A stretch of DNA of 64,000 bases, from positions 23,374,001 to 23,438,000 of the forward strand of contig OX597840.1 of NCBI GenBank assembly GCA_951406725.2, read 5' to 3'. Under the pieces are notes generated by a model. The model saw only the letters and a program-made list of their open reading frames with translations. It did not search any database and was not told where the DNA came from. The position numbers were made by a program, and so were the translations under genes. Shown here in pieces: positions 6,145-58,983 of this stretch. Origin of the DNA: Octopus vulgaris (lineage: Eukaryota). The stretch's first letter is position 1. The number at the start of each line of letters is the position of its first letter.

Positions 6145-6669
6145 ATGTCGGAAGAATTATGAAAATCATCATATGACTGTGACATCTGCAAAGAGACGTT
6201 CTTAGGAGAAAGTAGATTCAATCAACACAAACAAATTCATGCAGGGGAAGCACCATATCACTGTGATATCTGTGGTAAATCATTCTCTGGAAATAGCGAC
6301 CTAACCACTCACAAACGTATTCATACAGGGGAGGAACCATATTCCTGTGATATCTGTAGTAAATCTTTCTCTCAAAGCAGCAGCTTAACTGAGCACAAGC
6401 GTGTTCATACAGGCGAGAAACCATATCAATGTGATATCTGTGATATATCATTCTCTCGAAACACTACCCTAACTACGCACAAACATATTCATACTGGGGA
6501 GAAATCATATCACTGTTATATCTGTGGTAAATCATTCTCTGCTGGCAGTCACTTAACTAAACACACACTTATTCATACAGTGGAGAAACCATATCACTGT
6601 GATATCTGTGGAAGATCATTCTCTGAAAGCAGCAGCATAACCAAACACAAACGTATTCATACAGGGTAG
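6145..6669 (+). pseudogene. C2H2 zinc-finger gene G1: 6 fingers, premature TGA at codon 6
   Basis: ATG TCG GAA GAA TTA TGA (paralogues read MSEELGKSS). The frame is then open through six C2H2 fingers to TAG at 6667-6669, with no downstream in-frame ATG. A further intact finger follows the stop (6670-6759). Confidence 0.8.
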
Positions 6670-7553
6670 AAACCATATACCTGTGATATCTGTGGTAAGA
6701 CATTCTCTGGAAACAGTCACTTAACTATCCACAAATGCATTCACACTCAAGAAAAATAAATTCATAGTGATATCTGTGGCAAATCATTTACACAAAATCA
6801 TTTCTGATTTAAACAAGTCTTTCCTTATGAAGTGGGTCCATAACACAGTGATATTTGTTGTATAACATTTCCTCAGAAGGACAAAGGACGTATCTCATTA
6901 AGACATCCACAGAATATAGAAACTATATGAATGTGACATCTATAGTAAATCTTTGACATGAAATCATCCATTATTGAATCAAAAGAGCATTGAAAGAGGA
7001 AGGAAAACATATCACTTTGATGTTAAACCTGAATCATTCTATCAAAATGGTGAATTGTTTGTACACAGTCCTATTAATATGAAAGATATAACTGTAACCT
7101 AAGCTATTTGTGCTAAATCAATCTATGAAAATGGATCAATTATTGAAATGTAAATGCATTCATACAGAAGAGGAACCACGATGATGATGATCCTCATCAT
7201 TTAACATTCTCCTATTCATGCTTCTGTGGATCTGATGGAATTCATTGATGGAGATTTTCTACATCTGGGTACCTTTCTTGTTACCAATCTTCACCTGTTT
7301 CCAAGCAAGGAAATATTTTCCCTGGTGAGACATATTTTACGCAGAGGACTGGAAATGAACAACTGCACAAGTATGACGGTCATGATGGCCCTTTACGAAC
7401 ATCACATAATATCTGGACAAGGGTACATACACACTACACTCACATAAACTGTTGTATGTCTCAAGAATTTCTCATGGGAAATATATGTTACATGTTTTCT
7501 ACACATGTAAAAGTTTGTGATTCCTATTAGGAAATGAAACACATGTAATGCTG

Positions 7554-7559
7554 AATAAA
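7554..7559 (+). terminator. Putative poly(A) signal of G1 (AATAAA preceded by TGTA)
   Basis: acatgtaatgctgAATAAA is conserved at 26795, 33027, 46715, 54909 and 59845, and on the minus strand near 15380 and 38577. Confidence 0.55.
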
Positions 7560-8714
7560 TAATATCAAACTTTTCTCCGGTCTCCTTATGTGATTTTCTA
7601 ATTACCTTGCAAAAAATATTATCCAAACCTCCCACAAAAATAATGTACGTGTATATATGTAATTACAAGCTTGTTTGTTCAACTGGTGTAGTTATGTTAG
7701 AGTAGTGGGGTGAGAGGGAGGGAAAAGTAAAGGAAGGTGGTCTTATAATAATTCTGCTTGTCATTACGTTACTTAGGTCGTCGGTAACACTTTCATGTGA
7801 TTGGAGAGAGAAAGGACAAGGCCATGAGTGAGACGGGAAGAGAGAGAAGCGTGCATGACATGATAGGGGGACATATTTAGTTGAAGGTTGAGATATAGAG
7901 GAGAGTTACGAATATAATTTTAGATGGTGGGTGATGTTCTGATGGAGAGATTAAAGAAAGGTAGAGAGAGACAGATGATGGTGGTGGTTGTGATGGTGAA
8001 TACAAAGTGAAAAGTAACGTTTTTTTTTTACTTGAACTAAGTTTTTTTATAACACCTACAAATTGAAATGTGTATTGGCTCTCTGACCCATCACCTTGGC
8101 TTACAAGTTACCACTGATGTGGTTTTCAGAGTAAGCCATGTTACATTAAATTGTGACCCCTATATTTTACATATGAGGTAATTTTTTTAGTATACACTTC
8201 TCATGTTTTAGATAAGAAATTGTGCCCATGTAAATTTTAAAATGTAATTTTTTTCTGTTTATGAGAAAACTGGAAAAATATGAGCGAATATTTATTTTAT
8301 GAGTGCTGTGTCTATAAAATTGTGCATAAAGTGTATTAAGTAATTACCGTATTCCAGTTTCCTTCAGTTTTCAGTGAATAACAGATGAGCGACTATCTTT
8401 TGATGCAGACACAATACAGGCTCCACTTTAGAGTGTTTTGGTTTCAGGAATAACCCAATCCATTGCCTCACTAGACACCGAGGCCATGACTAGTGACCGG
8501 GACCTTTTGTTTTTGGATAATGGATAAACAGCTAAAAGATTATATAAATATATATTTATAAAATTAAAGACTTAAATCTGTACAAGATGCAAAGCAAAAA
8601 GAAAAGAATTCAATTAAGAATGCATCTGATGAAAGAATATTGGTTTAAAAAACATACGGCATAAAAATGATAACAATGAAGACTATAAGGAATATGAGGG
8701 AGATAGGGTGAATC

Positions 8715-8918: not shown

Positions 8919-11900
8919 GGCAGGATGTTCTTTCTCCCTCTGGTGGATCTTGTGCTTCGCACCGGTGTCTGAGGTGTGTTGTTGGGTTGCTGATGGGTGG
9001 TTGGTGCCCACTGGGATGATGATTCTGTGGGTGTTGTCACTGATGCAGCAGGTGTTGTACACGTTGTCCTCAACAGCTTTGGTGTTGGGCGGATGTGGGC
9101 CCTGTTGCCTCTCAGCTCCCCACCAGATTCCGTTACTATTATATACGATCTTGGGGTTTCAGCTCTACTGACAACCTGTGCTGGAATCCATGTTTTAGTT
9201 ATGGGATCTTCAGTATGCACATGTTGTCCTCCAAGTATCTCAGGTAAGTATTGTGCATGTCTGTTGTAATATTTCTGTGATTGTTCTCGAGTGGCTGCTA
9301 ACTTTGCCCTTGTCTCTTCCTGGTCAATAGGAGGTTGGATCTTAGTTGGCAGGGTAGTTTTGTACTTCCTGCCATTCAGCAATTCTGCTGGGGATTTCAT
9401 GTCAGCTCTCAGTGGTGTCGCTCGTAGGGACAGAAGTGCCAGGTGTGGGTCTTCCTTAGTCTCTCGGCATTTCACTAGTGTTCTCTTCACTGTCTGCACC
9501 TGTCTTTCTATAAACCCATGACCTTTGGGGTAATGTGGAGATGAAGTTGTAATATTGAACCCATACTCATCGGCTAGCTTTTTGAATTCTTGCGATGTGA
9601 ACTGGGTTCCATTGTCACATATGATCTGCTCTGGTATTCCTTGCTCTGCTAGAAGTCCTCGAGCCACTGTAGTGATTGTTTTGGCTCTCAGGTCTTTCAC
9701 TCTTCTCACAAATGGAAATTTGGAGTAGTAGCAGGCCATTATCAAATACCATTCTTGGCCCTCTGTGAACAGATCTACTCCAATAGTTTGCCATGGCCTT
9801 CTCGGGATGTCATTAGATATCATTTCCTTCTTTTGTTGTGAATTTCTGTACTTTTGACAGATGTGGCATGTAGAAACTCTCTTTTCTATGTCTTTGTACA
9901 TGCCTACCCCATATACTGCTGACTTGGCTCGGAGCTTGCATTTGTCCATTCCTAGATGCCTTTGGTGGATCTTGTCAAGAATCTCTTTTTGCATTGACTT
10001 GGGTATGATTATTCGGGATCCAGCCATCAGGATTCCATTCTCCACTGATATATCATCATGGATGGTCCAATATTCACGAATGAGGGGCTGCACCTGATGT
10101 CTCTTTTCTGGCCACCCCTGAATCACCATCTGAGTAAGGAGCTGGTGTTCTTCATCTTTGATTTCTCCTCTTTGATTTCTGCTAGCTTTGTGGTTGTCAC
10201 ATTTATAATGTGGTGGATCTTTATGCTTCGTCCTTCCCTCTCCTGTTTATCATATGAGGATAGTCTGGAAAGAGCATCCGCCAATATCAGGTCTTTTCCT
10301 GGCTTGTACCTGATATCATAGTCGTATGTTTGAAGCCTTAACAGTAATCTCTGCAGTTTGGCTGGTGCTTTCGTCATGTTTTTTCTATGTATTTGTTCTA
10401 GCGGGCGATGGTCTGTTTCAATATTGAAATGTCTGTCATACAGGTATGTATGGATCTTTTCACATCCATATACTACTGTCAGGTGTTCCCTTTCAATATT
10501 TGCGTACCTTGTCTCTGTGGGTGAGAGAGCTTTCGAGGCATATGCAATGGGTTTACCTTCCTGTAACAGTGCTGCACCAACTCCCCTCATAAAAGCATCG
10601 ACTTGGAGTGTTACTGGTTTGCGTCTGTCATAGTATTGCAGAGTTGTCTCCTTACTGATGAGCTTTTTGATTGCTTCGAAATCCTGTGTGTGTGAAGCAC
10701 ACCAATCAAACTCTACGTCATCTTTGTTTAGTTCTCGGAGATTTGCAGTGTGATCGGCCAGCTTGGGTATGAAGGCTCCCATGTAGCGAATGAGTCCCAG
10801 GAAGCTCCTGAGTTCCTTCTTGTCTTTAGGTTCTTTAATGTCTCTGATGGCTTCCACTTTAGCGGGGTCTGGTTTAACTCCCTCTGCAGAGTATATAATT
10901 CCAAAGAATTTGCACTCCTTTGCTTTGATCACACACTTGTCTGCATTGAGTTTGATGCCTGCTTGTCGGGTTTTCTCCATAGCTTCATGTAAATTGAAGT
11001 CATGTGTGGTCTCATCCTTGCCATGCACTTGGATGTCATCTGCTATTCCAATTGCTCCCTTGCAGCCTTGGTAGGTCTCATCTATTCGGCACTGGAAAAC
11101 ATCTTGGCTCACCTTCAATCCAAATGGGAGTCAGTTGAATCGATATCTGCCAAATGGTGTGTTGAAGGTCGTGAGCATGGATGACTCTTTGTCTATCTTT
11201 ACATTCCAGTACCCATTACTGACATCCAGTTTGCGAAATAATCTGGACCCAGCCAATGATGGTGTGATTTCTTCAAGGGTTGGAATTGGATGGTACTCTC
11301 TTTTTAATGCCTTGTTCAGGTCCCCTGGGTCGAGGCATATCCATAGGGTACCATTGGGTTTTTCCTTGATTACAATTGAATTCACCCTGTCTGTTGGTCG
11401 TGTCACTTTGGTGATTATTTCTTTTTTTTCCATTCTGTCCAACTCTGTCTTCAGCTTCTCTTTTAGTTCTAGAGGGACGCGGCGAGGTGGGTGAACAATT
11501 GGTTTGATATTGGGGTCGACTGTTATATGGTATCGACATTTCACAAAGCACCCGACTGTATTGTCAAAGCATTCAGGGTACTTGCTTATCAGTTCTTCTT
11601 TGTTTGTGATTGGTGGTCGGTCTTTGATAGGCATATCTCTGTCAATCCTGCTCGGAGTTGCCTTCACTTCACCATTGATTGACACAATATTTAGCTTTTT
11701 GCAGGTATTGAGTCCAAGAATTGATTGTTTTTCCTTTGTGTGTCCCTGTGATTGTTGTTTTACCCAGTTGTGGCATCCTGGTACCTCCGTACGCAGTGAG
11801 GATTACATCACTTGGTGTGAGGATTCCTTCTTTGATTTTATTCCCTTGTGTCATGTGTTCTGGGAACATCTTTTTGTAGAGGTTGACAGGCAAGATATCA

Positions 11901-12025
11901 CTCTGGGCTCCAGTGTCAATCTTCAGCCTTAAGTCAATGTTCATTCGTTTCTTGCCAGACTTCTTTTGAATTCTTATTGTTGTGTATGCCTCATTTTTTT
12001 TCTGGTCGTCATTCCCCATGCACAT
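8919..12025 (-). pseudogene. Gypsy pol (protease, RT, RNase H, integrase), frameshifted
   Basis: Protease KIDTGAQSDILP. RT PIPTLEEI, LDVSNGYW, IADDI. RNase H DAFMRGVGAALLQ, TDHRPL, ADALSR. Integrase HQRH..CHIC zinc finger, VDLF, CDNGTQF, ERQVQT. Confidence 0.9.
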
Positions 12026-12158
12026 TTATTGTGCCGACTGCCAAGAATTCCTCCTCTGAGGTGTTTTGTTCCTGTAGTTGTGCATGTATATCTTTTTGTC
12101 TTCTCTTTGAAAATTGGGGCTTGTATTTCTGGGATTTTTTTAGTCTACACATTTTTTC

Positions 12159-12905
12159 CTAGTGGTTAGGTTTTCCACATGCTTTGCAGTGTGTACCGAA
12201 TGCAGGACATTTCTTCCGGTTGTCGAACTCATGCTCTGTACCACAGTACTGGCATGTTCTTTGTTTGCTGGTATGTTTCGTCCTGTGCCTAGATACAATA
12301 TCTACACTGCTGCCAAGTGAGCTTGTTTGTAAGGTAAGTGAGGCCATTTGTTTGGTAGTGGCTTCGAATGCTCTTGCAGTGTCTACTGCTTCTATCAACT
12401 GGAGAGCGTCCTAACCTATGAGGGATTTCTGAACTTCTTTATGAGCACATCCCCATATTAATTGGTCAACAATTCTTTCGTCCTTATCTTTAAATTTGCA
12501 TTTTTCGGCAACGTTCTTCAGTCTGGACAGGAAATTGTAAATCCTTTCTTGTGGGTCTTGTTTCAGGCCCTGGAATTCGTATCTGTGAATTCTATGGTTC
12601 GATCTGGGCTCTAGGTGCCTTTCAAATTTCTCTAAAAGTGTGTCTGGGTTATTGCAATCCGATTCTGACATGTCCCAGCTATTGAATAGGTCTAGACCTT
12701 TTTCGACCGTCCATAAAAAGCTTACCTTTTCAACTTCAGACGTGCCTTTCAGGAAACTTTTGAAAGCTAGTTGAGTTTTCTGCTTGAATTTCTTGAACGC
12801 TTCCATGATATCATTGGAGTCCCAGTTCATGTTCAGATGTAGATTCATCTGTACGGTGACGGAGGTCGCCATTTTGGATTCTCGTGTATGTGTGTCCGAA
12901 GACAA
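12159..12905 (-). pseudogene. Gypsy gag with zinc knuckle, interrupted by a stop
   Basis: ORFs 12411-12905 and 12159-12398; CQYCGTEH...CPAFGTHCKACGKPNH. Confidence 0.8.
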
Positions 12906-12979
12906 AGCGATGTTTTGTTTGTTAATTTCTGGTTCGTTGTGTTTCTGTTTTGTTGTAAAGGCACAGTTTCCGATTAATT

Positions 12980-12997
12980 ATCCCACCGCTGCCACCA
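12980..12997 (-). promoter_or_regulatory. Primer-binding site complementary to the tRNA-Leu 3' end
   Basis: Minus strand TGGTGGCAGCGGTGGGAT directly after the LTR-terminal CA. It is the complement of ...ATCCCACCGCTGCCA-CCA. Confidence 0.8.
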
Positions 12998-13609
12998 TGT
13001 TATGTGTTGTTTCCTTCTAATGGGATAGACAACCAATATGAAGCCATTGTTATCGTTTACGTGTTTATTTACTTTTTCATGTTACACGAACTGGACTACA
13101 TTCAGCGCAGCGACACCGATATAACTTTAGACACAGCGTAGTAATAATTATAAAATAGTGCCAAAAGCGGGGACGCATTCCAAACACGCACGCGGCTCTA
13201 CTTTATAGATTTGGTATTTTGTGAAGAGATTTCTTCAATATTCGGCTTCATCACTATTATTGTTATTATCACCAACCCTTTTCCGTTTTGCGACCACGTG
13301 TGGAAATATTCGAGTGTAGTGAAAATTTCCATACTTGAGGTATCCCTATAATTTTCCACACTATATTCCATCAGTTAATTTGCTTCTCCACAAAAAATTT
13401 TTTTAAAAGTTACTGTGGTTTAAAGTTTGATCATTCTTACCCATTTAGAAAACAATATTTGGAAGCTGTCATTTTGTTCATGTAAAAAAAGTGGGGTGAA
13501 ATATAAAATTATTGTGATTTTGTACTTTTTACACGGAAATTCATGATTCTGCAAAGACGTGATATAAAAAACTTTGTTCCACTAAAAGACAAATTACTTT
13601 TAACTATGC

Positions 13610-13830
13610 ACTATCCATCACCATTTCTTCCACCACAACCATCATCTCTCTCTTCGCCTTGAATCTCACCATCAGAACATCACCACTCTGCTAAAATTAT
13701 ATTGCTAACTTCTCTATATCATCAACTTCAACTAACTTTTTTAACCATGTAATAAATATTATGTTCCCCCTATCACATATCATGTACGCTTCTCTCTGTC
13801 CCTCTTTCTATCTTACTCTTTGCTTTAATA
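13610..13830 (-). repeat. Orphan remnant of a ZNF-gene 3' flank
   Basis: Reverse complement resembles 7830-7990, 33330-33520 and 47020-47260 (gatagggggaa..ggttaaaaaag..gtgatgttctgatg). Confidence 0.6.
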
Positions 13831-13879
13831 TATGGGTGCTTGAAACTCTCAGAAGAGAATTGCTGGGACCAGTATTCCG

Positions 13880-14225
13880 TTTGGGATATGCTTTTGAAAT
13901 GGAAAGAAAGCATGCCTTTTTTTGGAAACGACTTGTGACTGGAGATGAAAAATGGATTGCATGTTCAGCCAAACTGATCCTGGAGTTTGAAGAAATATCC
14001 CCCAAGCAACCAAAGATGAATATCCATGGCAACAAACCTGTGCTTTGTGTTTGGTGGGATCATAAAGGCATTGTTTATTATGACCTTCTCCCATAAAACC
14101 AGACCATTAATTCTGATGTGTTCTGTCATCAACTGGCTAATTTGAACCAAAATATATCAAAGAACTGCGGCTGGAGATTACCAACAGAAAAGCATTAGTC
14201 TTCCAACAAGACAATGCCCAGCCAT
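13880..14225 (+). mobile_element. Mariner (Tc1/mariner) transposase fragment
   Basis: FWKRLVTGDEKWI ... LCVWWDHKGIVYYDLLP*NQTINSDVFCHQL ... VFQQDNA. Confidence 0.85.
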
Positions 14226-16290
14226 TGTCAAATAGAAAGGATTCACCCTATCTCCCTCATATTCCTTATAGTCTTCATTGTTATCATTTTTATGTCGTAT
14301 GTTTTTTAAACCAATATTCTTTCACCCAGATGCATTCTTAATTGAATTCTTTTCTTTTTGCTTTGCATCTTGTACAGATTTAAGTCTTTAATTTTATAAA
14401 TATATATTTATATAATCTTTTAGCTGTTTATCCATTATCCAAAAACAAAAGGTCCCGGTCACTAGTCATGGCCTCGGTGTCTAGTGAGGCAATGTATTGG
14501 GTTATTCCTGAAACCAAAACACTCTAAAGTGGAGCCTGTATTGTGTCTGCATCAAAAGATAGTCGCTCATCTGCTATTCACTGAAAACTGAAGGAAATTG
14601 GAATACGGTAATTACTTAATACACTTTATGCACAATTTTATAGACACAGCACTCATAAAATAAATATTCGCTGATATTTTTCCAGTTTTCTCATTAACAG
14701 AAAAAAATTACATTTTAAAATTTACATGGGCACAATTTCTTATCTAAAACATGAGAAGTGTATACTAAAAAAATTACCTTATATGTAAAATATAGGGGTC
14801 ACAATTTAATGTAACATGGCTTACTCTGAAAACCACATCAGTGGTAACTTGTAAGCCAAGGTGATGGGTCAGAGAGCCAATACACATTTCAATTTGTAGG
14901 TGTTATAAAAAAACTTAGTTCAAGTAAAAAAAAAACATTACTTTTCACTTTGTATTCACCATCACAACCACCACCATCATCTGTCTCTCTCTACCTTTCT
15001 TTAATCTCTCCATCAGAACATCACCCACCTTCTAAAATTATATTCATAACTCTCCCCTATATCACAACCTTCAACTAAATATGTCCCCCTATCACGTCAT
15101 GCACGCTTCTCTCTCTTCCCGTCCCACTCATGGCCTTATCCTTTCTCTCTCCAATCACATGAAAGTGTTACTGACGACCTAAGTAACGTAATGACAAGCA
15201 GAATTATTATAAGATCAACTTCCTTTACTTTTCCCTCCCTCTCACCCCACTACTCTAACTACACCAGTTGAACAAAGAAGCTTTACTACACGTACATTAT
15301 TTTTGTGGGAGGTTTGGATAATATTTTTTGCAAGGTAATTACAAATCACATAAGGAGACCGGAGAAAAGTTTGATATTATTTATTCAGCATTACATGTGT
15401 TTCATTTCCTAATAGGAATCAAAAACTTTTAGATGTGTAGAAAACATGTAACATATATTTCCCATGAAAAATTCTTCAGACATACAATAGTTTATGTGAG
15501 TGTGTGTGTATGTACCCTTGTCCAGATATTATGTGATGTTCGTAAAGGGCCATCATCACCGTCATACTTGTGCAGTTGTTCACTTCCAGTCCTGTGTGTA
15601 AAATAAGTCTCACCAGGGAAAATATCTCCTTGCTTGGAAACAGGTGAAGACTGGTCATAAGAAAGGTACCCAGATGTAGGAAATCTCCATCAATGAATTC
15701 CATTTGATCCACAGAAGCATGAATAGGAGAATGTTAAATGATGAGGATCATCATCATCGTGGTTCCTCTTCTGAATGAATGCATTTACATTTCAATAATT
15801 GATCACTTTCATAGATTGATTTAGCACAAATAGCTTAGGTTACAGTTATATCTTTCATATTAATAGGACTGTGTACAAACAATTCACCATTTTGAAAGAA
15901 TGATTCAGGTTTAACATCACAGTGATATGTTTTCCTTCCTCTGTCAATGCTCTTTTGATTCAATAATGGATGATTTCATGTCAAAGATTTACCATAGATG
16001 TCACATTCATATAGTTTCTATATTCTGTGGATGTCTTTATGAGATACGTCCTTTGTCCTTCTGAGGAAATGTTATACAACAAATATCACTGTGTTATAGA
16101 CCCACTTCATAAGGAAAGACTTGTTTAAATCAGAAATGATTTTGTGTAAATGATTTGCCACAGATACTACTGTGAATTGATTTTTCTTGAGTGCGAATCC
16201 ATTTGTGGATAGTTAAGTGACTGTTTCCAGAGAATATCTTACCACAGATATCACAGGGGTATGGTTTCTACCCTGTATGAATATGCTTGT
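14036..16290 (-). repeat. Right arm of the long inverted repeat (G2 3' region)
   Basis: Reverse complement of about 6650-8918. Confidence 0.9.
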
Positions 16291-17500
16291 GTTTGGTTAA
16301 GTTACTGTGTTGAGAGAAAGATTTACCACAGATATCACAGTGATATGGTTTCTCCCCAGTATGAATACGTCTGTGTTGAGTAAGGCTACGGCTTTCTGAG
16401 AATGATTTTCCACAGATATCACAGGAATATGGCTTCTCTCCTGTATGAACCCGTTTGTGAGTAGTTAAGTTACCGCTTTGATCAAATAATTTACCACAAA
16501 TATCACAGTGATATGGTTTCTCCCCTGTATGAATACATTTGTGATTCGTTAAGCTACTTCCATTAGAGAATGATTTACCACAGATATCACAGTGATATGG
16601 TTTCTCCCCTGTATGAATACATTTGTGTTTAATTAAGCTACTTCCATCAGAGAAAGATTTACCACAGATATCACAGTGATATGGTTTCTCCCCTGTATGA
16701 ATACGTTTGTGCTTCGTTAAGCTACATCCATCAGAGAAAGATTTACCACAGATATTACAATGATATGGTTTGTCCCCTGTATGAATACGTTTGTGATTCG
16801 TTAAGCTACATCCATCAGAGAATGATTTACCACAGATATCACAATGATATGGTTTGTCCCCCCCATGACCCCGTCTGTGAGTAGTTAAGTTACCTTCTTG
16901 ATAGAATGATTTACCACAGATATCACAGTGATATGGTTTCTCCCGAGTATGAATACGTTTGTGCCGAGTTAAGCTATTGCCAACAGAGAATGATTTACCA
17001 CAGATATCACAGGAATAAGGCTTCTCTCCTGTATGAACCCGTTTGTGTTGAGTTAAGATACTGGTCTGAGAGAATGATTTACCACAGATATCACAGCAAT
17101 ATGGTTTCTCCCCAGTATGAATACGTCTGTGTTGAGTTAGGCTACGGCTTTCTGAGAATGATTTACCACAGATATCACAGGAATATGGCTTCTCTCCTGT
17201 ATGAACCCGTTTGTGAGTAGTTAAGTTACCGCTTTGATCGAATGATTTACCACAGATATCACAGGGATATGGTTTCTCCCCTGTATGAATACGTTTGTGT
17301 TTAATTAAGCTACTTCCATCAGAGAATGATTTACCACAGATATCACAGCGATATGGTTTCTCTCCTGTATGAACTCGTTTGTGTCGGGTTAAGCTTTTCT
17401 TGTCAGACAATGATTTACCACAGATATCACAGCGATATGGATCTTGACTTGTATGAATTTCTTGGTGTTTACTGGATTTACGTTTTTCTAAAAATGACAT
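16268..17500 (-). CDS. C2H2 zinc-finger protein G2, 410 aa, 14 fingers
   Basis: Uninterrupted CxxC..HxxxH/TGEKP array. Fingers 3-4 recur as 12-13. Ends TG-TAG. Confidence 0.88.
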
Positions 17501-18476
17501 TTTGTACGTGTCACAGTCATATGATGATTTTCAAAATTCTTCAGACACCTCTTCAAGAAAAAATAAAATCGATCCTTCAAGTTGTACAGATCAACAACTT
17601 TTCAATAATATTTCTTCTCTCACCAAAATATATTTTCCTTCTTTTTGCTTTCATAGTTTATTCCAAACAAATATCACTTCTCTTATATTTCTTCTAAACG
17701 TGATCAATGCCAATATTTAAAAATGTCGCAAATACTCTTTGAAAATCCATCAAATTATATTTAAAAGAGAAAACTATCTCTTGCACATTTCAGACACAGA
17801 AGTAAAGAAATGCTTTCTCTCTCAGGGGAAATATTTCACTGTAACTCAGCAATGTTTTATAGAAGCAGGAGTATACGTTTGTAGAATATCTTTGCAGAGT
17901 CTTTCGAACACGATACATATTGATGATTCTTTAAAAGTATAATTTACTGTTATGCCAATTTCATGTGATTTTCTGAAAGAATAAAAAAAATAATATAAGG
18001 CATAGAATAAGTTTAAAAGGCAGATATTCAAAAATGCAATTTTATGCTATTTCTGTTTTAATGGATTGTAGAAGTAAACCTGCATTCAAACTAATAAACT
18101 TACCCAAAAGTTAATAAATTACGAGCAGATTCAATAATTATAATTGCAACTCCTGGACATTAAATCTGTGACACACACGCTCTTTCTCTCTCTCACACAC
18201 ACACCAATATAGATGTCAATGGCCTAGATAACCAATGTTTTCACCTCAGAGTTCTATCTTGTCAACACAGCTTTGTTTAGTAACACAGATGTGGAGGCAC
18301 ATGGCCTAATGGTTAGAGCAGCGGACTCGCGGTCGTGGGAATCTCAGACCGGAAGTTATGCTGCATTTCTGAAGCAATTAATAAAAACAAAATAACATGA
18401 ATATATATATATTTGAGATGTTTTTTCTTATTTTACTTAAATCGTTCATTTTCTTCATCACAATACACATCCTAAT

Positions 18477-21155: not shown

Positions 21156-21630
21156 GGTACTTGGCAAGTGTAGTGGACCCGGTTTGGCACACGCGAATTC
21201 GCGCCAGACGTACGATAGTCAATGGGTCTAATTAATGATCAAGACAAGGGTGGTGGTGGTGGTAGTTTAGTGTAAATAAACAAACAAGAAAACATCAAAA
21301 CAAACCAAAATAAACAAAACATATATATACACACATACACACACACATATATATATATATATATGTGTACATATATACCTGAATGATGTACCTACCATGG
21401 ATGCTGTCCAAAAACTAAAAACTAGTAAAAGAATATATCACACACATTTTATTTGATTTGTGTAAAAAAAATCAAATCCATTGTTCAAAGAAATAATTTA
21501 TTTATTTTCTTTAAAAATTTCTTTTATTTTATTCTGTAAAATCAACTCATTTGCATACGCGCAAGTCGTTGTAGGATCGACTACTTACGACTAGCTAGCG
21601 CACACCGGTCCAGTCTTTGCTAGTAGTACC
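21156..21630. mobile_element. MITE-like element with GGTACT...AGTACC termini
   Basis: Imperfect TIRs. Shares gtcgttgtaggatcgact..cgactagctag with the 22759 and 43239 MITEs. No TSD; it sits at a duplication junction. Confidence 0.6.
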
Positions 21631-25373: not shown

Positions 25374-26036
<663 letters not shown>

Positions 26037-27624: not shown

Positions 27625-27940
27625 GACAAGACTTAGTTCCCCTTGTTCAGAGTTAGTTCTTCCTAATTTTGTTGCTCCGTATGCATGTGTATTGCTTGCT
27701 CAGTTCCACTTTACAACTGATATTGAAGAGAAAATCTAATTAAATTGACACGTGATTGGTAATTAAGTGTCTAAAGAAACAGATGCAGCATTTTTTTTTA
27801 TTATGTTGACCTGTTAAATATTAATATTCGTCGTAAAAATTCTCTTGAAGCTGTCACTGTCCACTCTAACTTTTCACTCATTCAACATATTCTCATATTT
27901 TCATCGTTGACTCTCTCTGAATATATATTACTATGTAAGT
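27625..27940 (+). promoter_or_regulatory. G4 promoter/exon-1 module
   Basis: CACGTG at 27749-27754 plus ATTGG; donor GTAAGT at 27935. Confidence 0.5.
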
Positions 27941-30545: not shown

Positions 30546-31198
30546 TTAATGTCCAGGAGATGTTATTATACTACATATGTCTACACCCTGATATAAACTT
30601 CTTGAAAACAGAGAGATGGGATAAATTTAATAGTTCAGATAAAGAATTACTTCTAAAATCTTTGAAAACAGAAATGTCGTAACTTTTCACTTTTGAATAT
30701 CTGCCTTTTAAACATATTTGATGTCTTATATTATTTTTTCTATTCTTTCAGGAAATCACATGAAATTGGCTAAAAAGTATTTTTTGCTTTTAAAGAATCA
30801 TCAATATGTCTCATGTTTGAAAGACTCTGCAAAGATATTCTACAAACGTATAATCCTGCTTCTATAAAACATTGCTGAATTACAGTAAAATATTTCCTCT
30901 GAGAGAGAAAGCATTTCTTTACTTCTGTGTCTGAAATGTGCAAGAGATAATTTTCTCTTTTAAATATACTTTGATGGATTTCAAAGAGTATTTGCGACAT
31001 TTTTAAATATTGGCATTGATCACATTTAGAAGAAATATAAGAGAAGTGATATTTGTTTGGAATAAACTATAAAAGCAAAAAGAAGCAAAATATCCATATA
31101 TTTTGGTGAGAGAAGAAATATTATTGAAAAGTTTTTGATCTGTTCAACTTGAAGGATCGATTTTATCTGTTCTTGAAGAGGTGTCTGAAGAATTTTGA

Positions 31199-32224
<1,026 letters not shown>

Positions 32225-39248: not shown

Positions 39249-40424
39249 CTAACTTGTATGAGTATGTATGTGTTCATTTAAGTTACTGCCATCAGAGAAT
39301 GATTCACCACAGATATCACAGCGATAAGGTTTTTCCCCTGTATGAACCCGTTTGTGTGTAGTTAGGGCAGTGTTTTGAGCGAATGATTTACCACAGATAT
39401 CACAGTGATATGGTTTCTCACCAGTATGAATACGTATGTGTCTAATTAAGCTACTGCCATCAGAGAATGATTTACCACATATATCACAGGGATATGGTTT
39501 CTCCCCTGTATGAATTAGTTTGTGTGTAGTTAAGTGAATTCCTTGAGAGAATGATTTACCACAGATATCACAGTGAAAAGGTTTCTCCCCTGTATGAATG
39601 CGTTTGTGTTTATATAAGCTGCTGGCATCAGAAAATGATTTACCACAGATATCACAGGGATAAGGCTTCTCTCCTGTATGAATACGTATGTGCGTAGTTA
39701 AGCTACTGTCACCAGAGAATGATTTACCACAGATATCACAGTGAAAAGGTTTCTCCCCTGTATGAACCCGTTTGTGTTGGGTTAAATAGTGATTTATAGA
39801 GAAAGATTTACCACAGATATCACAGTGATATGGTTTCTCACCAGTATGAATACGTTTGTGTTTCGTTAAGCTACTGCCATCAGAGTATGATTTACCACAG
39901 ATATCACAATGATAAGGTTTCTCTCCTGTATGAATACGTTTGTGTTTAGTTAAGCCATAGATTTCAGGGAAAGATTTACCACAGATATCACATTGATATG
40001 GTTTCTCCCCTGTATGAATATGCTCGTGTGCAATCAAGTTTCTTGCAGAAGAGAATGATTTACCACAGATGTCACAGTGATGTCGTTTCTCACCAGTATG
40101 AATACGCTTGTGTTTGGTAAAGCTACTGCCATCTGAGAATGATTTACCACAGATATCACAGTGATAAGGTTTCTCCCCGGTATGAACCCGTTTGTGCGTA
40201 GTTAAGGTAGTGTTTTGAGAGAATGATTTACCACAGATGTCACAGTGATGTCGTTTCTCTTCTGTATGAATACGTTTATGTCTAGTTAAACATTTGCTTT
40301 GAGAGAATACTTTCCCACAGATATCACAGGGATAAAGTTTCTCCCCTGTATGAATTCGTTTGTGTTCATTGAATTTACTTTCTTCTGAGAAGTCATGTGA
40401 GGATTGTCCTAATTCTTCCGTCAT
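39249..40424 (-). CDS. C2H2 zinc-finger protein G5, 391 aa from ATG, 13 fingers
   Basis: [11 protein letters not shown] start with the first finger half deleted; 13 canonical fingers; ends TS-TAG-AAA. Confidence 0.88.
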
Positions 40425-44020: not shown

Positions 44021-44788
44021 CATGACTCCCCATCAAAGCTTTCAGTCATGACATCCCCGGGTGTTCACAATGAAATTCATGTAATGTCCTTTTCTGTACT
44101 GCAGTTGGTTCTACCACTCTTTGTGTTTACATTAATACATTGTCACAGATTTTCCTGCTTCATTGGTGTGTCCAGGAGGTGTTATTACAATAGATATGTC
44201 TGTGATATAAACCTCTTGAAAATAGAGAGATGGGATAAATTTAATACTTCAGATAAAGAATTACTTCTACAATTTATGAAAACAGAAATGTTGTAAATTT
44301 GCACTTTTGAATATCTGCCTTTTAAACATACATGATGTCTTATATTATTTTTTCTATTCTTTCAGAAAATCACATGAAATTGGCTAAAAAGTATTTTTTA
44401 CTTTTAAAGAATCATCAATATGTCTCGTGTTTGAAAGACTCTGCAAAGATATTCTACAAATGTATAATCCTTCTTCTATAAAACATTGCTGAATTACAGT
44501 AAAATATTTCCTCTGAGAGAGAAAGCATTTCTTTACTTCTGTGTCTGAAATGTGCAAGAGATAATTTTCTCTTTTAGATATACTTTGATGGTTTTACAAA
44601 AGTATTTGCAACATTTTTAAATATTGGCATTGATCACATTTAGAAGAAATATAAGAGAAGTGATATTTGTTTGGAATAAACTATAAAAGCATAAAGAAGA
44701 AAAATATATTTTGGTGAGAGGAGAAAATTATTGATTGTACAATTGATCTGTACAACTTGAAGGATTGAGTTTTATTTTTCTTGAAGAG

Positions 44789-46022
<1,234 letters not shown>

Positions 46023-51191: not shown

Positions 51192-51454
51192 ATCTTTATG
51201 TAGTTTCAGCTCACGAGCTGTGGCCATGCTGGGGCACCGCCATTTGGTGTTGCTACATGATTTTACTTCACGAATGCTTTTTAGCAATTGCCATTTGGTG
51301 CATGAGAGAGTTTGATGCAGCTGCCCTCATCTGCACCTCCCGCCGTGAAGTTGGTTCATCTGGGACACCTGACAAGAAGAGATCCAGTTTTATTTTAAAG
51401 ACATCTGCATCCACCCCATGCAGGTCTTTCAGGCTCTTCAGGAGGATATTGAAC
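51192..51454 (-). mobile_element. 3' end of a CR1/L2-group LINE
   Basis: Minus strand FNILLKSLKDLHGVDADVFKIKLDLFLSGVPDEP..RAAASNSL; tail ggcggtgccccagcatggccacagc..gctgaaac followed by ataaagataaag. Confidence 0.7.
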
Positions 51455-51936
51455 CCATTTGTGTTGGGTTAAATGGTGATTTATAGAGAATGATTTACCA
51501 CAGATATCACAGTGATATGGTTTCTCCCCTGTATGAATATGCTCGTGTGCAATCAAGTTTCTTGCAGAAGAGAAAGATTTACCACAGATGTCACAGTGAT
51601 GTGGTTTCTCACCAGTATGAATACGCTTGTGTTTGGTAAAGCTACTGCCATCAGAGAATGATTTACCACAGATTTCACAGTGATATGTTTTCTCCCCTGT
51701 ATGAATTAGTTTGTTTTTAGTTAAGCCATAGATTTCAGGGAAAGATTTACCACAGATATCACATTGATATGGTTTCTCCCCTGTATGAATATGCTCGTGT
51801 GCAATCTTGCAGAAGAGAAAGATTTCCCACAGATATCACAGGAATAAAGTTTCTCCACTGTATGAATTCGTTTGTGTTCATTGAATTTACTTTCTTCTGA
51901 GAAGTCATGTGAGGATTGTCCTAATTCTTCTGTCAT
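51452..51936 (-). pseudogene. C2H2 zinc-finger gene G7 (G5 paralogue), frameshifted and 3'-truncated
   Basis: [11 protein letters not shown] start; 7-nt deletion near 51805; the array is cut inside the SINHHLTQH finger by the LINE. Confidence 0.85.
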
Positions 51937-52657
51937 CACTTCAGAAAAAATATAATCAATCGAAGAATATTTCTTCACTCACCAAAATTTATGGATATTT
52001 TTCTTCTTTTCGTTTTTATAGTTTATTCCAAACAAATATCACTTCTCTTATATTTCTTCTAAACGTGATCAATGCCAATATTTAAAAATGTCGCAAATAC
52101 TCTTTGAAAATCCATCAAAGTATATTTAAAAGAGAAAATTATCTCCTGCACATTTCAGACACAGAAGTAAAGAAATGCTTTCTCTCTCAGAGGAAATATT
52201 TTACTGTAATTCAGCAATGTTTTATAGAAGCAGGATTATACGTTTGTAGAATATCTTTGCAGAGTCTTTCAAACATGAGACATATTGATGATTCTTTAAA
52301 AGTAAAAAATACTTTTTAGCCAATTTCATGTAATTTCCTGAAAGAATAGAAAAAAATAATATAAGACATAGAATAGGTTTAAAAGGTAGATATTAAAAAA
52401 TGCGAATTTATGCCATTTCTGTTTTAATGGATTGTAGAAGTAAACCTGCATTCAAACTAATAAACTTACCCAAAAGTTAATAAATTACGAGCAGATTCAA
52501 TAATTATAATTGCAACTCCTGGACATTAAATCTGTGACACACACGCTCTTTCTCTCTCTCTCTCACACCAATATAGATGTTAATGGCCTAGATAGCCTAT
52601 GTTTTCACCTCGGAGTTCTATCTTGTCAACACAGCTTTGTTTAGTAACACAGATGTG

Positions 52658-53368: not shown

Positions 53369-54200
<832 letters not shown>

Positions 54201-55729
54201 TGCAAAGGATCCATAGCACAGTGACATTTGTTGTATGACATTCTGTCAGAAGGTCAAGCTTGGACCTTATAAAGACATCCACAGAATTTAGAAACTATAT
54301 GAATGTGACATCTATAGTAAATCTTTGACATGAAATCATCCATATTGAATCAAAAGAGCATTGACAGAGGAAGGAAAACATATCACTGTGATGTTAAACC
54401 TGAATCATTCTTTCAAAATGGTGAATTGTTTGTACACAGTCCTATTAATATGAAAGATATAACTGTGACCTAAGCTATTCGTGCTAAATCAATCTATGAA
54501 AATGATCAATTATTGAAATGTAAATGCATTCATACAGAAGAGGAACCACGATGATGATGATCCTCATCATTTAATATTCTCCTATTCATGCTTCTGTGGA
54601 TCAGATGGAATTCATTGATGGAGATTTTCCTGAGCTGGGTACCCTTTCTTGTGACCAATCTTCACCCGTTTCCAAGCAAGGAAATATTTTCCTTGGTGAG
54701 ACATATTTTACGCAGAGGACTGGAAGTGAACAACTGCACAAGTATGACGGTCATGATGGCCCTTTACGAACATCACATAATATCTGGACAAGGGTATACA
54801 CACACACATGTATGTTCAAAGATTTTCTTAAAGGAAATCTTTTACATTTTTTTCTCTACGTGTAAATGTTTGTAATTCCTATTAGGAAATGAAACACATG
54901 TAATGCTGAATAAATAATATCAAACTCTTCTCCATTGTCTTTATGTGTTTTTTTCTAAGGTAAAAAAAAAATGGCTTCCATCTCACCCCACCCCGTTTTT
55001 TGGACCCGTAAAAGGGTTTTGTAGCATATTATGAGGTCAGGGTAGTTGATTCCATGCAAAAAATCTAACATTTTGATTTTTTTCTTTGTGAAAATCATGC
55101 GGGAGTTAATATAGAAATTTACCATAATGTTATTTAGCCTCAAATCAAACCTGATACAGCAAACGTATCATCAATGACATTCCAGCCTTCAGCAAACTGT
55201 CTTTTGAGGGATAATCTAGGACATTACGTACAATGGGCATGTGATTTAGATAGGGGGATACTTTGGATGCTATTTTTAACATGTCGAGCGACCAGGCAGA
55301 GGCTCTCTCATTGGTTCGGTTGCGTGAAGAGATTTTTTAACACATATAGGATCTTTTCGGTTTGAACGGCAGTTTTTAACATAATTTCTAGGTAACTAAA
55401 AAATTTTTAACTTCGTATACGGGTAGAATGTTTTTATAAAAGATCTTTTTCTCTTGGCTTTATTGAGAAAATTCTATACTTTGTAAGATATTTGTTGTTT
55501 TTTCTGCAATTTTAACCAATCAATGACGTCCATTGAGGTAAGAAAAAAATTCCTGTGCCGTATGAATATGTCCCTCGTTTAAGAAACAGATTGGGTTTAT
55601 TTACATTTGTGAAGAAAAAAAGATACCCTTCCTCCCAACCCGAAACCCTAAAACAGATTGAATGCAATAGATCGATACTAGGGTCATAATTATGGGTGAC
55701 AATTTCATATGACACCGCTAGAGTATAAA

Positions 55730-56036
55730 GACAAGACTTAGTTCCCCTTGTTAAATCTTCCTAATTTTGTTGCTCCGTATGCATGTGTATTGCTTGCTCA
55801 GTTCCACTTTACAACTGATATTGAAGAGAAAATCTAATTAAATAGACACGTGATTGGTAATTAAGTGTCTAAAGAAACAGATGCAGCATTTTTTTTATTA
55901 TGTTGACCTGTTAAATATTAATATTCGTCGTAAAATTCTCTTGAAGCTGTCACTGTCCACTCTAACTTTTCACTCATTCAACATATTCTCATATTTTCAT
56001 CGTTGACTCTCTCTGAATATATATTACTATGTAAGT
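55730..56036 (+). promoter_or_regulatory. G9 promoter/exon-1 module
   Basis: CACGTG at 55847-52 plus ATTGG; donor GTAAGT at 56031. Confidence 0.5.
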
Positions 56037-57870
56037 ATATTTCTATTGTATATGTATCATATTACGTACGTCTGTTTGTTTCGATGTGTTGAGTAAGTTA
56101 CAAGAAAGAATCTCACTAAACAAAGACGAAATAGCGGAGGTAAAGGGCATGGACCGCACCTACCTTTCCCTAATTTTTTTGCGATGGAAACCCACTTTTT
56201 CAACTGCGGTGAGGCTGTTGTTTCAATACTTTCGTTGTGTTCTCCTTTACATTCAGATATTTCATTGCATCTTTCCTTATTTCCTATATTATTTGTTAAC
56301 GTCCGATGGATACCTTGTGTAGATAACTTTTCTCTTTCTTCCTCACATGTAATTCCGCGGGAAAATTACGATGTAATTTCTAAGACATGCGGAATGTATA
56401 AAAATACGAGTGTGCACTTGAAATACTGAAACGAAAAGTAAATATTGTATACAGAAGAAATGGAACGGATTTTATTTAAAACCTAAGAAGTCTTTATTTC
56501 CGGAGGTTCTTCTCCATCATTACAACTTACAATTTATATCTATTTTTCAAAGGAATCTTTCTTTAAGCACCCAATGTAACAGCTTATCACATATTTTTAT
56601 TTTGGGGGAATTTTCAGAAAATTTCTGCGTGTTTCTGCTGTACATTCAAGGATTCAAACGGTTATGAAACCAACAAAGAAGGGAAAAAACCGATTAAAGA
56701 GCAATTTAGCTGTTATTTATGGCACACCCCACGACCACCTGATACCTTCCGAGTTTCTTTCTCACTCTTACTTGCTAATGTTTTTCAATATCTTTTTTCA
56801 CATAAACACATTCAATGGTCCGTTGTTGGGATTTAAGGCATTATATATGAATTGCACTCTGTGTTTTTATGTTATTTTCAATTAATTACCTAAGTTATCC
56901 TTTTCTCTCTTCGTATTACATATATACTTAAATTCAAATTACGATGAACGTAAACAAAGAAACGAAGTTTGCTTTAGAAGCTTTGAGATGTTTTAGGAAG
57001 TTAAAGAAGTGATTTTAAATTCTCAAAGGCAGGATATTGCTAATAATATAGCCTGAACAGGATAAGCTACCCCTATTTTGCAGAAAAGTGTTGGCGGCCG
57101 GCTATGAGATTCGAACTCGCACCTCCGTGATTACGCGTCGCTGTATTTTTCACTCACCACGATAATATTTCATTGCGATGTAAAGAGGAAGAGAAACATT
57201 AATTGTAACGTGTAAGAATTTAAAAGTAAAGAAAAAAAAAACGAGAATAATTTAATGTTAAAACTACATCATTTGCCCCCATGGAGAAGGATTGTCACCA
57301 ATTTCCTTCTCCACCTCAACCAATAATTTTTCCTACATCAAAAATTCCCCACAAAAGATTTTGATGCTGTTAGTCATCCATACTGATTATTTACTGACTG
57401 TTATTCATGTTTCATGTAACACAGAATATTGACATTAAGCTGCCTGTATGTATGTATTTATATATTTATAAATGTACGGAAAGAGGCAGAGGAGGTGTGA
57501 TATCTCTTTTACGACACATGACTGAGATGAAAGCATCAGATATCTAGTGTTATTGGCTTGTATATTGGTGTGTGTCTATGACAGACTTAATGTCCAGGAG
57601 ATGTTATTATACTACATATGTCTACTCCCTGATATAAACTTCTTGAAAACAGAGAGATGGGATAAATATAATAGTTCAGATAAAGAATTACTTCTACAAT
57701 TTATGAAAACAGAAATGTCGTAAATTTGCACTTTTGAATATCTGCCTTTTAAACATACTTGATATCTTATATTATTTTTTCTATTCTTTCAGAAAATCAC
57801 ATGAAATATTATTGAAAAGTTGTTGATCTGTACAACTTGAAGAAGGTTCAGGTTTATTTTTCTTGAAGAG

Positions 57871-58983
57871 ATGTCTGAAGAATTAGGAAAATCATCATAT
57901 GACTGTGACATCTGCAAAGAGTCATTCTTAGAAGAAAGTAAATTCAATCAACACAAACAAATTCATGAAGGGGAGAAATCATATCACTGTGATATCTGTG
58001 GTAAATCATTGTCTGACAGGAGTAGCTTTGCTCGTCACAAACGTATTCATACAGGGGAGAAGCCATATCACTGTAACGTCTGTGGTAAATCATTCTCTCA
58101 TGCTCATAGCTTAGCTATTCACAAACAAATCCATACAGGGCAGAAACCATATCACTGTGATATCTGTGGTAAATCATTCTCTGATGGCAGTAGCTTAACC
58201 AAACACAAGCGTATTCATACAGGGGAGAAACCATATCACTGTGATATCTGTGGTAAATCATTCTCTGATGGCAGTAGCTTAACTCGACACAAACGTATTC
58301 ATACAGGGGAGAAACCATATTATTGTGATATCTGTGGTAAATCATTCTCTCAAATCAGCAGCTTAACGAATCACAAACGCATTCATACAGGAGAGAAACC
58401 ATATTCCTGTGATATCTGTGGTAAATCATTCTCTCATAGCAGTAGCTTAACTAGTCACAAATGCGTTCATATAGGAGAGAAACCATATTCCTGTGATATC
58501 TGTGGTAAATCATTCTCTGATGGCAGTAGGTTGACTCAACACACACGTATCCATACAGGGGAGAAGCCATATCACTGTGATATCTGTGGTAAATCATTCT
58601 ATCAAGGAAGTAATTTAACTACTCACAGACGGGTTCATGGAGGGGAGAAACCATATCACTGTGATATCTGTGGTAAATCATTCCATCAAGGAAGTAACTT
58701 AACTACTCACAGACGGGTTCATGGAGGGGAGAAACCATATCACTGTGATATCTGTGGTAAATCATTCTCTTATAGCAGTAGCTTCACTAGTCACAAACGT
58801 ATTCATACAGGTGAGAAACCATATCACTGTGATATCTTTGGAAGATCATTCTCTGAAAGCAGCGGCTTAACTCAACACAAGCGTATTCATACAGGGGAGA
58901 AACCATATCGCTGTGATATTTGTAGTAAATCATTCTCTCAGAACGGTGGCTTAACTCAACACAAACGTATTCATACAGGGTAG
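57871..58983 (+). CDS. C2H2 zinc-finger protein G9, 370 aa, 13 fingers (finger 12 degenerate, C to F)
   Basis: MSEELGKSS start, intact array, ends TG-TAG. Confidence 0.9.

Follow-up and report, generated by a model that had tools for sequence, protein, structure and literature searches.

Whether the clustered zinc-finger genes of octopus have exchanged fingers with one another is the question raised by a 64,000-nt stretch of the Octopus vulgaris genome (OX597840.1; here the window, to which all positions refer). Octopus-specific clustered expansions of C2H2 genes, with at least 100 members, are described in the main-text passages of two cephalopod studies (Holzinger 2025, PMC12513265; Albertin 2022, PMC9068888). 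Such expansions have so far been discussed as whole-gene duplications and analysed via whole-protein trees. An earlier, sequence-only reading of the window had proposed effector-less genes that permute a shared pool of finger cassettes. The analysis reported here indicates that the genes are probably mosaics of one another, formed when paralogues recombined with each other in the germline through ordinary homology.

Results

All nine 84-bp C2H2 arrays (G1–G9) proposed for positions 6145..58983 are present (Table 1). They show the C-X2-C-X12-H-X3-H pattern, TGEKPY-type linker and 28-aa period of tandem Krüppel-type poly-ZF proteins (PF00096, PF13465). An ATG-initiated frame runs through the fingers in only five of them (G2, G3, G4, G5 and G9); in G1, likely a pseudogene, M-S-E-E-L is followed by a TGA at 6160–6162. 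A long ATG frame is kept in 66 of 87 family genes. A 22-mer of the 5′UTR occurs in 82 exact copies, all on one contig, which gives a short-leader C2H2 subfamily of at least 82 genes, or about 90 paralogues, on a single chromosome. Overall 120 arrays were found, and both flanks were available for 73 genes. The nearest named relatives of the N-terminus are from octopus (five of seven matches in an N-terminal search are named as Octopus sinensis or O. vulgaris) and P0125 has helices in common with the window family; with the 82 UTR copies, these features are those of an octopus-specific clustered C2H2 expansion. Full-length and mid-array protein searches returned no orthologue, only generic ZNFs, mostly from vertebrates, at up to ∼64% identity.

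Table 1. Features of the zinc-finger (ZF) genes in the window.
Feature	Position	Strand	Description
G1	5715..6756	+	ZF exon, acceptor 5715, ATG 6145; six fingers in a Met-less frame
G2 ORF	16268..17500	-	410 aa, 14 fingers
G3 ORF	25401..26036	+	211 aa, 7 fingers, acceptor 24995
G4 exon 1, likely non-coding	27643..27934	+	GTAAGT donor after 27934
G4 ZF exon, 5′UTR part	30752..31150	+	Acceptor 30752; homogenised family-wide, pi 0.02-0.09
G4 ORF	31229..32224	+	331 aa, 11 fingers
G4 finger 5 (RNSDLTT)	31622..31705	+	Differs by 4 nt from G1 finger 1 (6250-6333) and by 3 nt from a gene A020 finger
G5 ORF	39249..40424	-	391 aa, 13 fingers, acceptor 40827
G6	44366..46019	+	Frameshifted; four near-identical NRNSLTK units
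G7	51398..52337	-	Frameshifted, 3′-truncated copy of the G5 lineage; EIY/DGSSF/SAR fingers permuted
G8	53369..54220	+	Frameshifted G3 paralogue without the family 5′ exon part
G9 ORF	57871..58983	+	370 aa, 12 fingers, acceptor 57793; 5′UTR mostly deleted

Each recurrent helix type named in the sequence-only reading was found in the genes to which it had been assigned. The strength of sharing was expressed as nucleotide differences per 84, for which random finger pairs have a median of 17. Close pairs include the NSDLTT fingers of G1 and G4 (4), the NLTT..HGG type of G2 finger 7 and G9 fingers 8–9 (6–7), G3 finger 5 and G8 finger 4 (5), G4 finger 2 and G6 finger 13 (2), and the identical G6 finger 9 and G9 finger 3 (45463–45546 and 58144–58227). 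Sharing is weaker for NTTLTT in G1/G5 (12), the HSL type in G4/G9 (13) and G3/G9 (14), and VSSNL in G3/G4 (13). Sharing of DGSSL or ESSS fingers tells little, as both types differ from the family's majority finger by only 3–7 nt. Fingers are hardly closer within a gene than between genes: the nearest neighbour lies in another gene for 45 of the 79 window fingers, and median distances within and between genes are 16 and 17 nt. The near-invariance claimed for the scaffold holds in part. Of 79 canonical window fingers, 23 match its 27 nt exactly and 55 with at most one mismatch, counts biased toward conservation by the choice of units via a fuzzy scaffold match, but whole fingers show no shortage of synonymous diversity (pS 0.32 at scaffold codons in 1,055 fingers). 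Within the finger unit, linkage is about zero beyond 10 nt.

The flanks of the close paralogues are related, as had been claimed, but are short of near-identical, at 88–94% and mostly on one side (3′ flanks of G1/G2, 93.8%, G3/G8, 92% and G4/G6, 88%; 5′ flanks of G5/G7, 92%). G2 is a mosaic in which the far-5′ flank resembles G5/G7 (91–95%), the N-terminus G4 and the 3′ flank G1 (93.8%). G4 and G9 have an upstream spacer in common (95%) but not the array and 3′ flank. A twin of G5 (A044) lies ∼220 kb away, and the two arrays differ at 11 of 1,092 nt. The NRNSLTK units in G6 point to amplification within the array, and across the family internal finger blocks have been both gained and lost.

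Across the family, exchange between genes is well supported by flank incongruence, chimeras and single-finger tracts, in agreement with the earlier claim. In 73 genes, distances at the 5′ flank do not correlate with those at the 3′ flank (Mantel rho −0.03, p=0.68; 0.03 after removal of five doubtful genes), whereas the two halves of one flank, as a control, give 0.49 and 0.43. Site pairs are incompatible in 47% of cases between flanks and in 20% and 29% within them, and the flank clades form four-gamete cycles. Among 125 pairs with 3′ flanks within 3%, the 5′ flanks are at least 10% apart in 89; in the reverse direction the figure is 30 of 46. Fitted to the 3′ data, the 5′ tree does little better than three label-shuffled trees (delta logL 3786 versus 4089–4456). 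Within the 3′ flank, too, each half rejects the tree of the other (delta logL 803), so that exchange is not confined to the genes and fast trees add error. The spacer is not supported as the inherited unit in place of the gene, since linkage over 37 head-to-tail spacers does not exceed that within genes (Mantel −0.08, p=0.80).

Individual chimeras give the same picture. Gene B110 follows B099 from the 5′ flank to finger 11 and then B104 through the 3′ flank, with 0–5 differences per 168 nt from each, B101 likewise changes parent in mid-array, and chimeras of this type carry private differences from both parents. Blocks of at least three fingers at 97% identity or more occur in 51 gene pairs, only 14 of which are close in both flanks. 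Single-finger tracts have 0–4 differences with neighbours at 10–34; finger 5 of G4, whose neighbours differ between genes by 16–34 nt, is a candidate tract of this kind. In 22 discordant nearest-5′-neighbour pairs, identity ends in the array (9), the UTR or N-terminus (10), the intron (2) or the tail (1), although the mapping is crude and calls on the 3′ side are confounded by indels. This dispersion does not bear out a special generator in 84-bp register, and homology alone yields that register.

Nor does the claim of different orders stand as a general pattern. Unambiguous common fingers are collinear in 998 of 999 comparisons (also in 498 of 499), although the gene pairs lack independence and many of the collinear comparisons come from close paralogues. 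Near-identical fingers differ in relative position by a mean of 0.13 versus 0.37 for unrelated fingers, and of 577 near-identical finger pairs between genes, 392 are flanked by one or more neighbours that also match. With order and relative position largely kept, free permutation of cassettes from a common pool is rejected as the main pattern, and the arrays are polar mosaics, not scrambles. At loose thresholds ∼6% of shared fingers are inverted and 114 of 531 gene pairs contain an inversion, so permutation is not negligible; G5/G7 is the sole clear inversion in the window.

Contact residues change faster than the scaffold, as the earlier reading expected. Their pN/pS is 1.32–1.54 versus 0.61 for the scaffold (164 collinear triplets; odds ratio 2.2, p=5e-5, that is, ∼2.2 times faster change), and entropy is 1.9–3.4 bits at −1, +2, +3 and +6 and at most 1.2 at most scaffold positions. 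Positive selection is borderline: the contact value is 1.32 (p=0.15) without replaced fingers and 1.54 (p=0.006) with them, and spanning-tree counts give a contact dN/dS of ∼1.0. These values are indicative only, being counting-method estimates on recombining repeats that include pseudogenes and were preselected for C/H-intact fingers.

The genes are effector-less in the isoform seen, which contains no effector exon. For 75 of the 87 family acceptors, the 8 kb upstream contain an element related to exon 1 of G4. The splice of exon 1 to the acceptor is present in two presumed RNA runs and absent from a large presumed DNA run; since the runs are RNA by guess and paralogues are 92–97% alike, expression is established for the family, not for single genes. 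Finger-to-finger joints in the sequencing-run data stem from other paralogues and were disregarded. The effector-less reading is supported because the spliced leader is non-coding, with stop codons in each of the three frames both before and after splicing. The N-termini have only ∼20–40 aa, and among the leader frames and the best 25 Pfam rows per protein no KRAB, PRDM9-type PR/SET or SSXRD domain was found, although an alternative acceptor close to the ATG is conceivable.

The ∼400-bp 5′UTR is homogenised, with 2–9% diversity beside flanks of 10–30%, and this appears to be a new observation. Diversity falls smoothly from 0.2–0.3 in the intron to 0.02–0.05 at exon positions +0 to +225 and increases again toward the ATG. 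In recent pairs the far intron is linked to the N-terminus (0.45–0.50) and not to the intervening UTR (0.23), although low UTR diversity leaves this test little power. A conserved uORF peptide is not supported as the cause of the valley: the frame of the 35-aa uORF of G4 (30760–30864) is present in 37 of 80 genes, its synonymous share is 0.32 versus 0.26 expected and it has no Pfam match. A structured RNA was likewise rejected (no Rfam match in the window, folding z −1.0). Conversion templated by cDNA is disfavoured because diversity shifts gradually across the acceptor, without a step.

Discussion

We propose that tandem and segmental duplication multiplied units of ∼7 kb, and that unequal crossover between paralogues would then fuse 5′ fingers of one gene to 3′ fingers of another, in an 84-bp register set by the homology of the scaffold. 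Gene-conversion tracts of ∼100–170 nt may transfer single fingers and hold the scaffold and 5′UTR alike, and within-array unequal exchange may duplicate or delete blocks and occasionally permute their order. Purifying selection would preserve the fold, contact residues would drift or come under mild positive selection, and about a quarter of copies would decay. No dedicated recombinase should be required. This process would probably keep generating and replacing predicted sequence-specific DNA-binding proteins that have no tethered effector; the encoded proteins are predicted, most likely, to act as transcriptional regulators.

This extends a known kind of array evolution, that of poly-ZNF genes and PRDM9, to what appears to be exchange between octopus paralogues. 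As described for PRDM9 (Buard 2014, PMC3890296), the family combines 84-bp units, a homogenised scaffold, contact-codon variation and polarised arrays, with minisatellite-like turnover by duplication, deletion and conversion. However, PRDM9 is one gene with KRAB/SET domains whose alleles exchange, whereas here ∼90 effector-less paralogues exchange mutually, and fingers are scarcely more alike within genes than between them. Young mouse KRAB-ZFP clusters are reported to share segmental duplication, non-allelic recombination and many pseudogenes, with finger blocks duplicated, deleted and inverted among homologous, non-adjacent and opposite-strand genes (Kauzlaric 2017, PMC5363842; Bruno 2025, PMC12575710). 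Unlike these, the octopus family has no KRAB on upstream coding exons, its between-gene exchange is family-wide with flanks unlinked, and its breakpoints lie in the genes' own homology, whereas Bruno (PMC12575710) ascribes recombination to ERVs. Vertebrate poly-ZF sets likewise show finger gain and loss among paralogues and faster contact-position change (Emerson and Thomas 2009, PMC2604467), but the account given there is of short conversions in few genes per set (most genes in chicken), diverse fingers per protein and strong positive selection; exchange in octopus is pervasive and the selection signal modest. The hemipteran ZF271-like/APEZ genes, of independent origin, are also clustered, expressed invertebrate poly-ZF genes with fingers as sole domain and high turnover (Panfilio 2019, PMC6444547). 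Against the whole-gene trees and expression analyses of the cephalopod papers, the present account adds mosaic structure and a homogenised UTR, neither found in main-text passages of PMC12513265 and PMC9068888; the words 'conversion' and 'recombination' have no occurrences in the main text of PMC12513265.

Programmed cassette shuffling (shufflons, V(D)J, antigenic variation) uses a dedicated recombinase, fixed crossover sites and silent donors that feed an expression site. It was rejected here: breakpoints are dispersed, no recombinase was found among the ORFs scanned in the window, and most copies retain their own exon 1 and frame. A dedicated diversifier in a looser sense, in which recombination would be steered to these genes (a hotspot of double-strand breaks in the conserved 5′UTR is one example) and the family would be an evolved generator of specificities, as the stronger form of the earlier reading holds, is an unlikely explanation. 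In its favour are the smooth valley, the non-coding UTR segment with ordinary folding and no uORF selection, and a linkage between far intron and N-terminus that skips the UTR, as expected of conversion patches, but that linkage test is low in power, selection on a cis element would produce an equal valley, and breakpoints scatter across UTR, N-terminus, array and flanks. Moreover, spacer linkage is no stronger than linkage across genes, and the non-ZNF ORFs scanned in the window are retroelement fragments or lack a match. The broadest version, in which the ∼90 paralogues would recombine as a single population, like a PRDM9-style coding minisatellite distributed across a whole gene family, with the conversion-homogenised UTR as an evolved recombination initiator that keeps copies pairable and individuals inheriting new polymorphic, effector-free arrays for transposon recognition or neural gene regulation, we also hold to be improbable.

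Plain birth-and-death, by whole-gene duplication and within-array finger gain and loss, would explain common fingers by descent and fits the conserved finger order, similar relative positions, matching neighbours and the segmental duplicates visible in the window. It is nevertheless very unlikely, as it cannot yield uncorrelated flanks, four-gamete cycles, two-parent chimeras or fingers 0–1 nt apart between genes with both flanks at least 10% apart, and it is already contradicted unless the chimeras are misassemblies. That misjoined paralogues or falsely duplicated haplotypes made the mosaics we rate least probable of all. All rearrangement evidence comes from one assembly, the region is highly repetitive, its 1.06 Mb include four 100-N gaps and some copies are nearly identical (B101/B111), but no gap lies at the B110 or B101 junctions, the chimeras' private differences separate them from both parents, incongruence is family-wide at 10–20% divergence, and an O. 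sinensis protein model shares four of these helices, likewise ordered, but lacks the fingers between them. Independently of mechanism, the genes might be putative KRAB-independent transposon repressors in an arms race, a tentative function that we consider possible but doubtful. According to passages of PMC10547256, TE consensus sequences are enriched for the predicted motifs of octopus ZNFs and TEs are repressed by FiNZ-ZNFs in fish, and in the present family contact residues change fastest; on the other side, no effector domain is present to recruit silencing, the selection signal is weak, and the main text of PMC12513265 places expression of expanded octopus C2H2 genes mainly in nervous tissue and calls the arms race open.

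If the 5′ regulatory flank, fingers and 3′ end of these genes differ in history, whole-protein trees and orthology calls mislead. If the genes are mosaics, the reassortment of regulatory flanks against arrays becomes a testable cause for the reported spread of clade-mates across different expression modules. Order-keeping block splicing predicts chimeric binding sites composed of two parental half-sites, and the family would offer an invertebrate case for how fast new transcription-factor specificities may arise without KRAB.

Arrays, genes and relatives

Six-frame translation and Tandem Repeats Finder place nine arrays of 84-bp C2H2 units (G1–G9, in order along the window) on both strands; when split, these give 101 units, 79 of them canonical. 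Several degenerate fingers lie past the stop in the 3′UTR of most arrays, fall into a few lineage-specific series and mark arrays that were once longer. In a second N-terminal type the first ATG is lost, a stop is gained and a later Met serves as start in G2 and G4. The region closed in these two is open in relatives such as B096–B118 (arrays at 26.1–26.3 Mb on the same chromosome), and comparison of the N-termini reveals start-codon turnover inside the family.

A 22-mer of the leader, the 5′UTR part of the zinc-finger exon, has 82 exact copies, every one on this contig (C27), where the window spans 23.37–23.44 Mb in a genome of 2.8 Gb. The sequence sampled comprises 864 kb surrounding the window plus a 200-kb stretch at 26.1–26.3 Mb; further copies lie outside it, at 19.4 and 24.6 Mb. 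It holds 120 arrays, 95 of which were counted as family members; the acceptor is present in 87, and 73 combine a complete leader with a 3′ flank that can be aligned. A long frame is kept in 66 of the 87. A search with the N-terminal 62 residues of G9 gave seven matches, five of them named Octopus sinensis or O. vulgaris, and one O. sinensis protein model carries four helices in the same order as in neighbouring genes of the window cluster; both results point to Octopus as the probable host genus. The acidic peptide of A080–A083, in adjacent subfamilies, could be an interaction motif, and the repeat in array B111 is a recent within-array amplification.

Genes and features; plain positions are window positions
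Feature	Position	Description
G1		Stop 5 codons past ATG, no further in-frame Met ahead of fingers
G2	17500 (later Met)	14 fingers, ATG-initiated frame
G3		7 fingers, ATG-initiated frame
G4	31229 (later Met); 30752 (acceptor)	11 fingers, ATG-initiated frame
G5		13 fingers, ATG-initiated frame
G6, G7, G8		Each frameshifted or truncated
G9		12 fingers, ATG-initiated frame
LINE-type retroelement fragments	323-3710 (+)	Endonuclease, RT, zf-RVT; several frames
Exon-1-like element	4013-4261	97% identical to G4 exon 1; just downstream of the LINE-type fragments
Degenerate fingers (examples)	6750-7100; 32200-32700	3′UTR
LTR-retrotransposon internal region	8919-14035 (-)	Frameshifted (RT, RNase H, integrase), LTRs not detectable; centre of inverted G1/G2 3′ flanks (93.8% over 2.7 kb; inner 419 nt 98%)
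G2 upstream region	17690-19044; 20450-22366	Second copy of part of own 5′UTR/intron (95.6%); two exon-1-like element copies (92%)
Inverted repeat	62529-63998	466 nt, 95.7% identity; possibly DNA transposon ends
A080-A088	G000:C27:23,470,000-23,530,000	Adjacent subfamilies without the family leader; A080-A083 with longer, acidic N-terminal peptide
B111	G000:C27:26,224,348	36 fingers; two-finger unit repeated ~6 times

Exchange between genes

The sequence-only reading had proposed exchange between genes, and this is borne out by uncorrelated flank distances, two-parent chimeras and the sharing of single fingers. Over 73 genes, the median distance is 0.13 both for 220 nt of intron and for 463 columns of 3′ flank, and the two sets of distances are uncorrelated (rho -0.03, p=0.68; 0.03 after removal of five genes with doubtful 3′ anchors, A007, A011, A025, A026 and B111), whereas halves within one flank give 0.49 and 0.43. 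Incompatible site pairs make up 47% across flanks versus 20–29% inside a flank. With the five doubtful genes removed, 125 gene pairs differ by at most 3% in the 3′ flank, and 89 of these differ by at least 10% in the 5′ flank. For the 3′ alignment, the tree from 5′ sequence is hardly a better fit than shuffled trees; the 3′-flank halves conflict with each other as well, but far less than 5′ and 3′.

Array B110 equals B099 from the promoter side through finger 11 and B104 from there to the end, the parent switching between two helices; B101 has a similar switch. At least three collinear fingers are shared at 97% by 51 gene pairs, with both flanks close in 14, one close and one far in 25, both far in 3 and intermediate in 9. 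Single fingers lie 0–4 nt apart while their neighbours differ by 10–34 nt, as does finger 5 of G4 with finger 1 of G1 and with A020. Distinctive fingers of this kind are shared within 45 gene pairs with both flanks at least 10% apart, many of these pairs being non-independent and 11 involving the terminal GNSHLTI finger. G2 is a mosaic (far-5′ flank as in G5/G7, N-terminus as in G4, 3′ flank as in G1), and G4 and G9 have their upstream spacer in common (at 95%), but not their arrays. The paralogue pairs noted for near-identical flanks are 88–94% alike there, mostly on one side only.

Finger order and shared types

A freely permuted pool, with fingers in different orders, is not supported as the main pattern: unambiguous reciprocal matches are collinear in 498 of 499 cases and, over all 95 genes, in 998 of 999 comparisons. 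Under relaxed criteria 151 of 2730 comparisons were inverted, within 114 of 531 gene pairs, where chance predicts half. Close fingers have similar relative array positions. G5/G7 form an inversion inside the window, which may reflect a three-finger duplication followed by loss. Nor is exchange restricted to the arrays, as breakpoints also lie outside them. In recent pairs, intron linkage drops from 0.45–0.50 (to N-terminus and first finger) to 0.16–0.27 past the array, so crossovers likely accumulate along it.

Every shared helix motif listed earlier occurs, but their weight by DNA distance is unequal, random finger pairs having a median difference of 17 nt in 84. NSDLTT fingers are 4 nt apart, HGG fingers 6–7 nt and finger 9 of G6 and finger 3 of G9 0 nt; the NTTLTT pair (12 nt) and the HSL type of G4 and G9 (13 nt) are old relatives, and the DGSSL and ESSS types are near the majority finger of the family. 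Types present in at least two genes account for 79% of 889 fingers. The near-invariant scaffold holds for a 27-nt core (55 of the 79 window fingers have no more than a single mismatch), to which it is confined, since synonymous diversity across all scaffold codons is 0.32.

Possible selection on contact residues

Contact residues vary 2.2-fold faster than scaffold (p=5e-5), as had been predicted. In 164 finger pairs picked solely by matching neighbours on both sides, with transition-weighted sites, pN/pS was 0.61 in the scaffold and 1.32 at positions -1, 2, 3 and 6 (p=0.15 versus neutrality; 1.54, p=0.006, with 10 strongly diverged fingers retained). Spanning-tree counts gave ~1.0 for contact versus 0.4 for scaffold. 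The finger fold is maintained, and positive selection on contact positions is possible.

Leader and splicing

A polypyrimidine-CAG acceptor lies ~430 nt ahead of the usual ATG, and an upstream element, a likely non-coding first exon, precedes 75 of 87 family acceptors. Two presumed RNA runs, each from a separate study, yield contigs in which the element (~27871) is joined to 30753; one contig of a third run begins at 30753 and carries 31 unaligned letters. The joint is absent from the 76% read of a large presumed DNA run. Run types are guesses, and this evidence applies to the family rather than to individual genes. The leader is closed by stops in all frames, unspliced or spliced, and the Pfam matches among the rows listed are finger-type only; for the isoform seen, the gene product therefore appears to lack an effector, as had been claimed. 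No alternative acceptor beside the ATG occurs among the rows listed, though one may exist.

Paralogue diversity falls from 0.2–0.3 in the intron to 0.02–0.05 across the exon's first 225 nt and stays below 0.1 up to +400. Selection on uORFs does not explain this valley, and neither Rfam nor folding accounts for it as structured RNA; it may be a product of conversion or a selected cis-element.

Discussion

In the portions of the sources consulted, vertebrate poly-zinc-finger genes gain and lose fingers with occasional conversion (PMC2604467), finger blocks of mouse KZFPs are duplicated, deleted and inverted (PMC5363842; PMC12575710), PRDM9 undergoes minisatellite turnover (PMC3890296) and Hemiptera have effector-less clusters (PMC6444547). 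The octopus C2H2 expansions themselves are already described (PMC12513265; PMC9068888), as is predicted TE binding by octopus ZNFs (PMC10547256). Our literature search listed no paper on recombination between paralogues in cephalopod C2H2 genes.

The zinc-finger feature and the inter-gene exchange are real, and the exchange is best explained by ordinary non-allelic recombination that is unusually pervasive. The cluster appears to extend known poly-zinc-finger evolution by a new variation.
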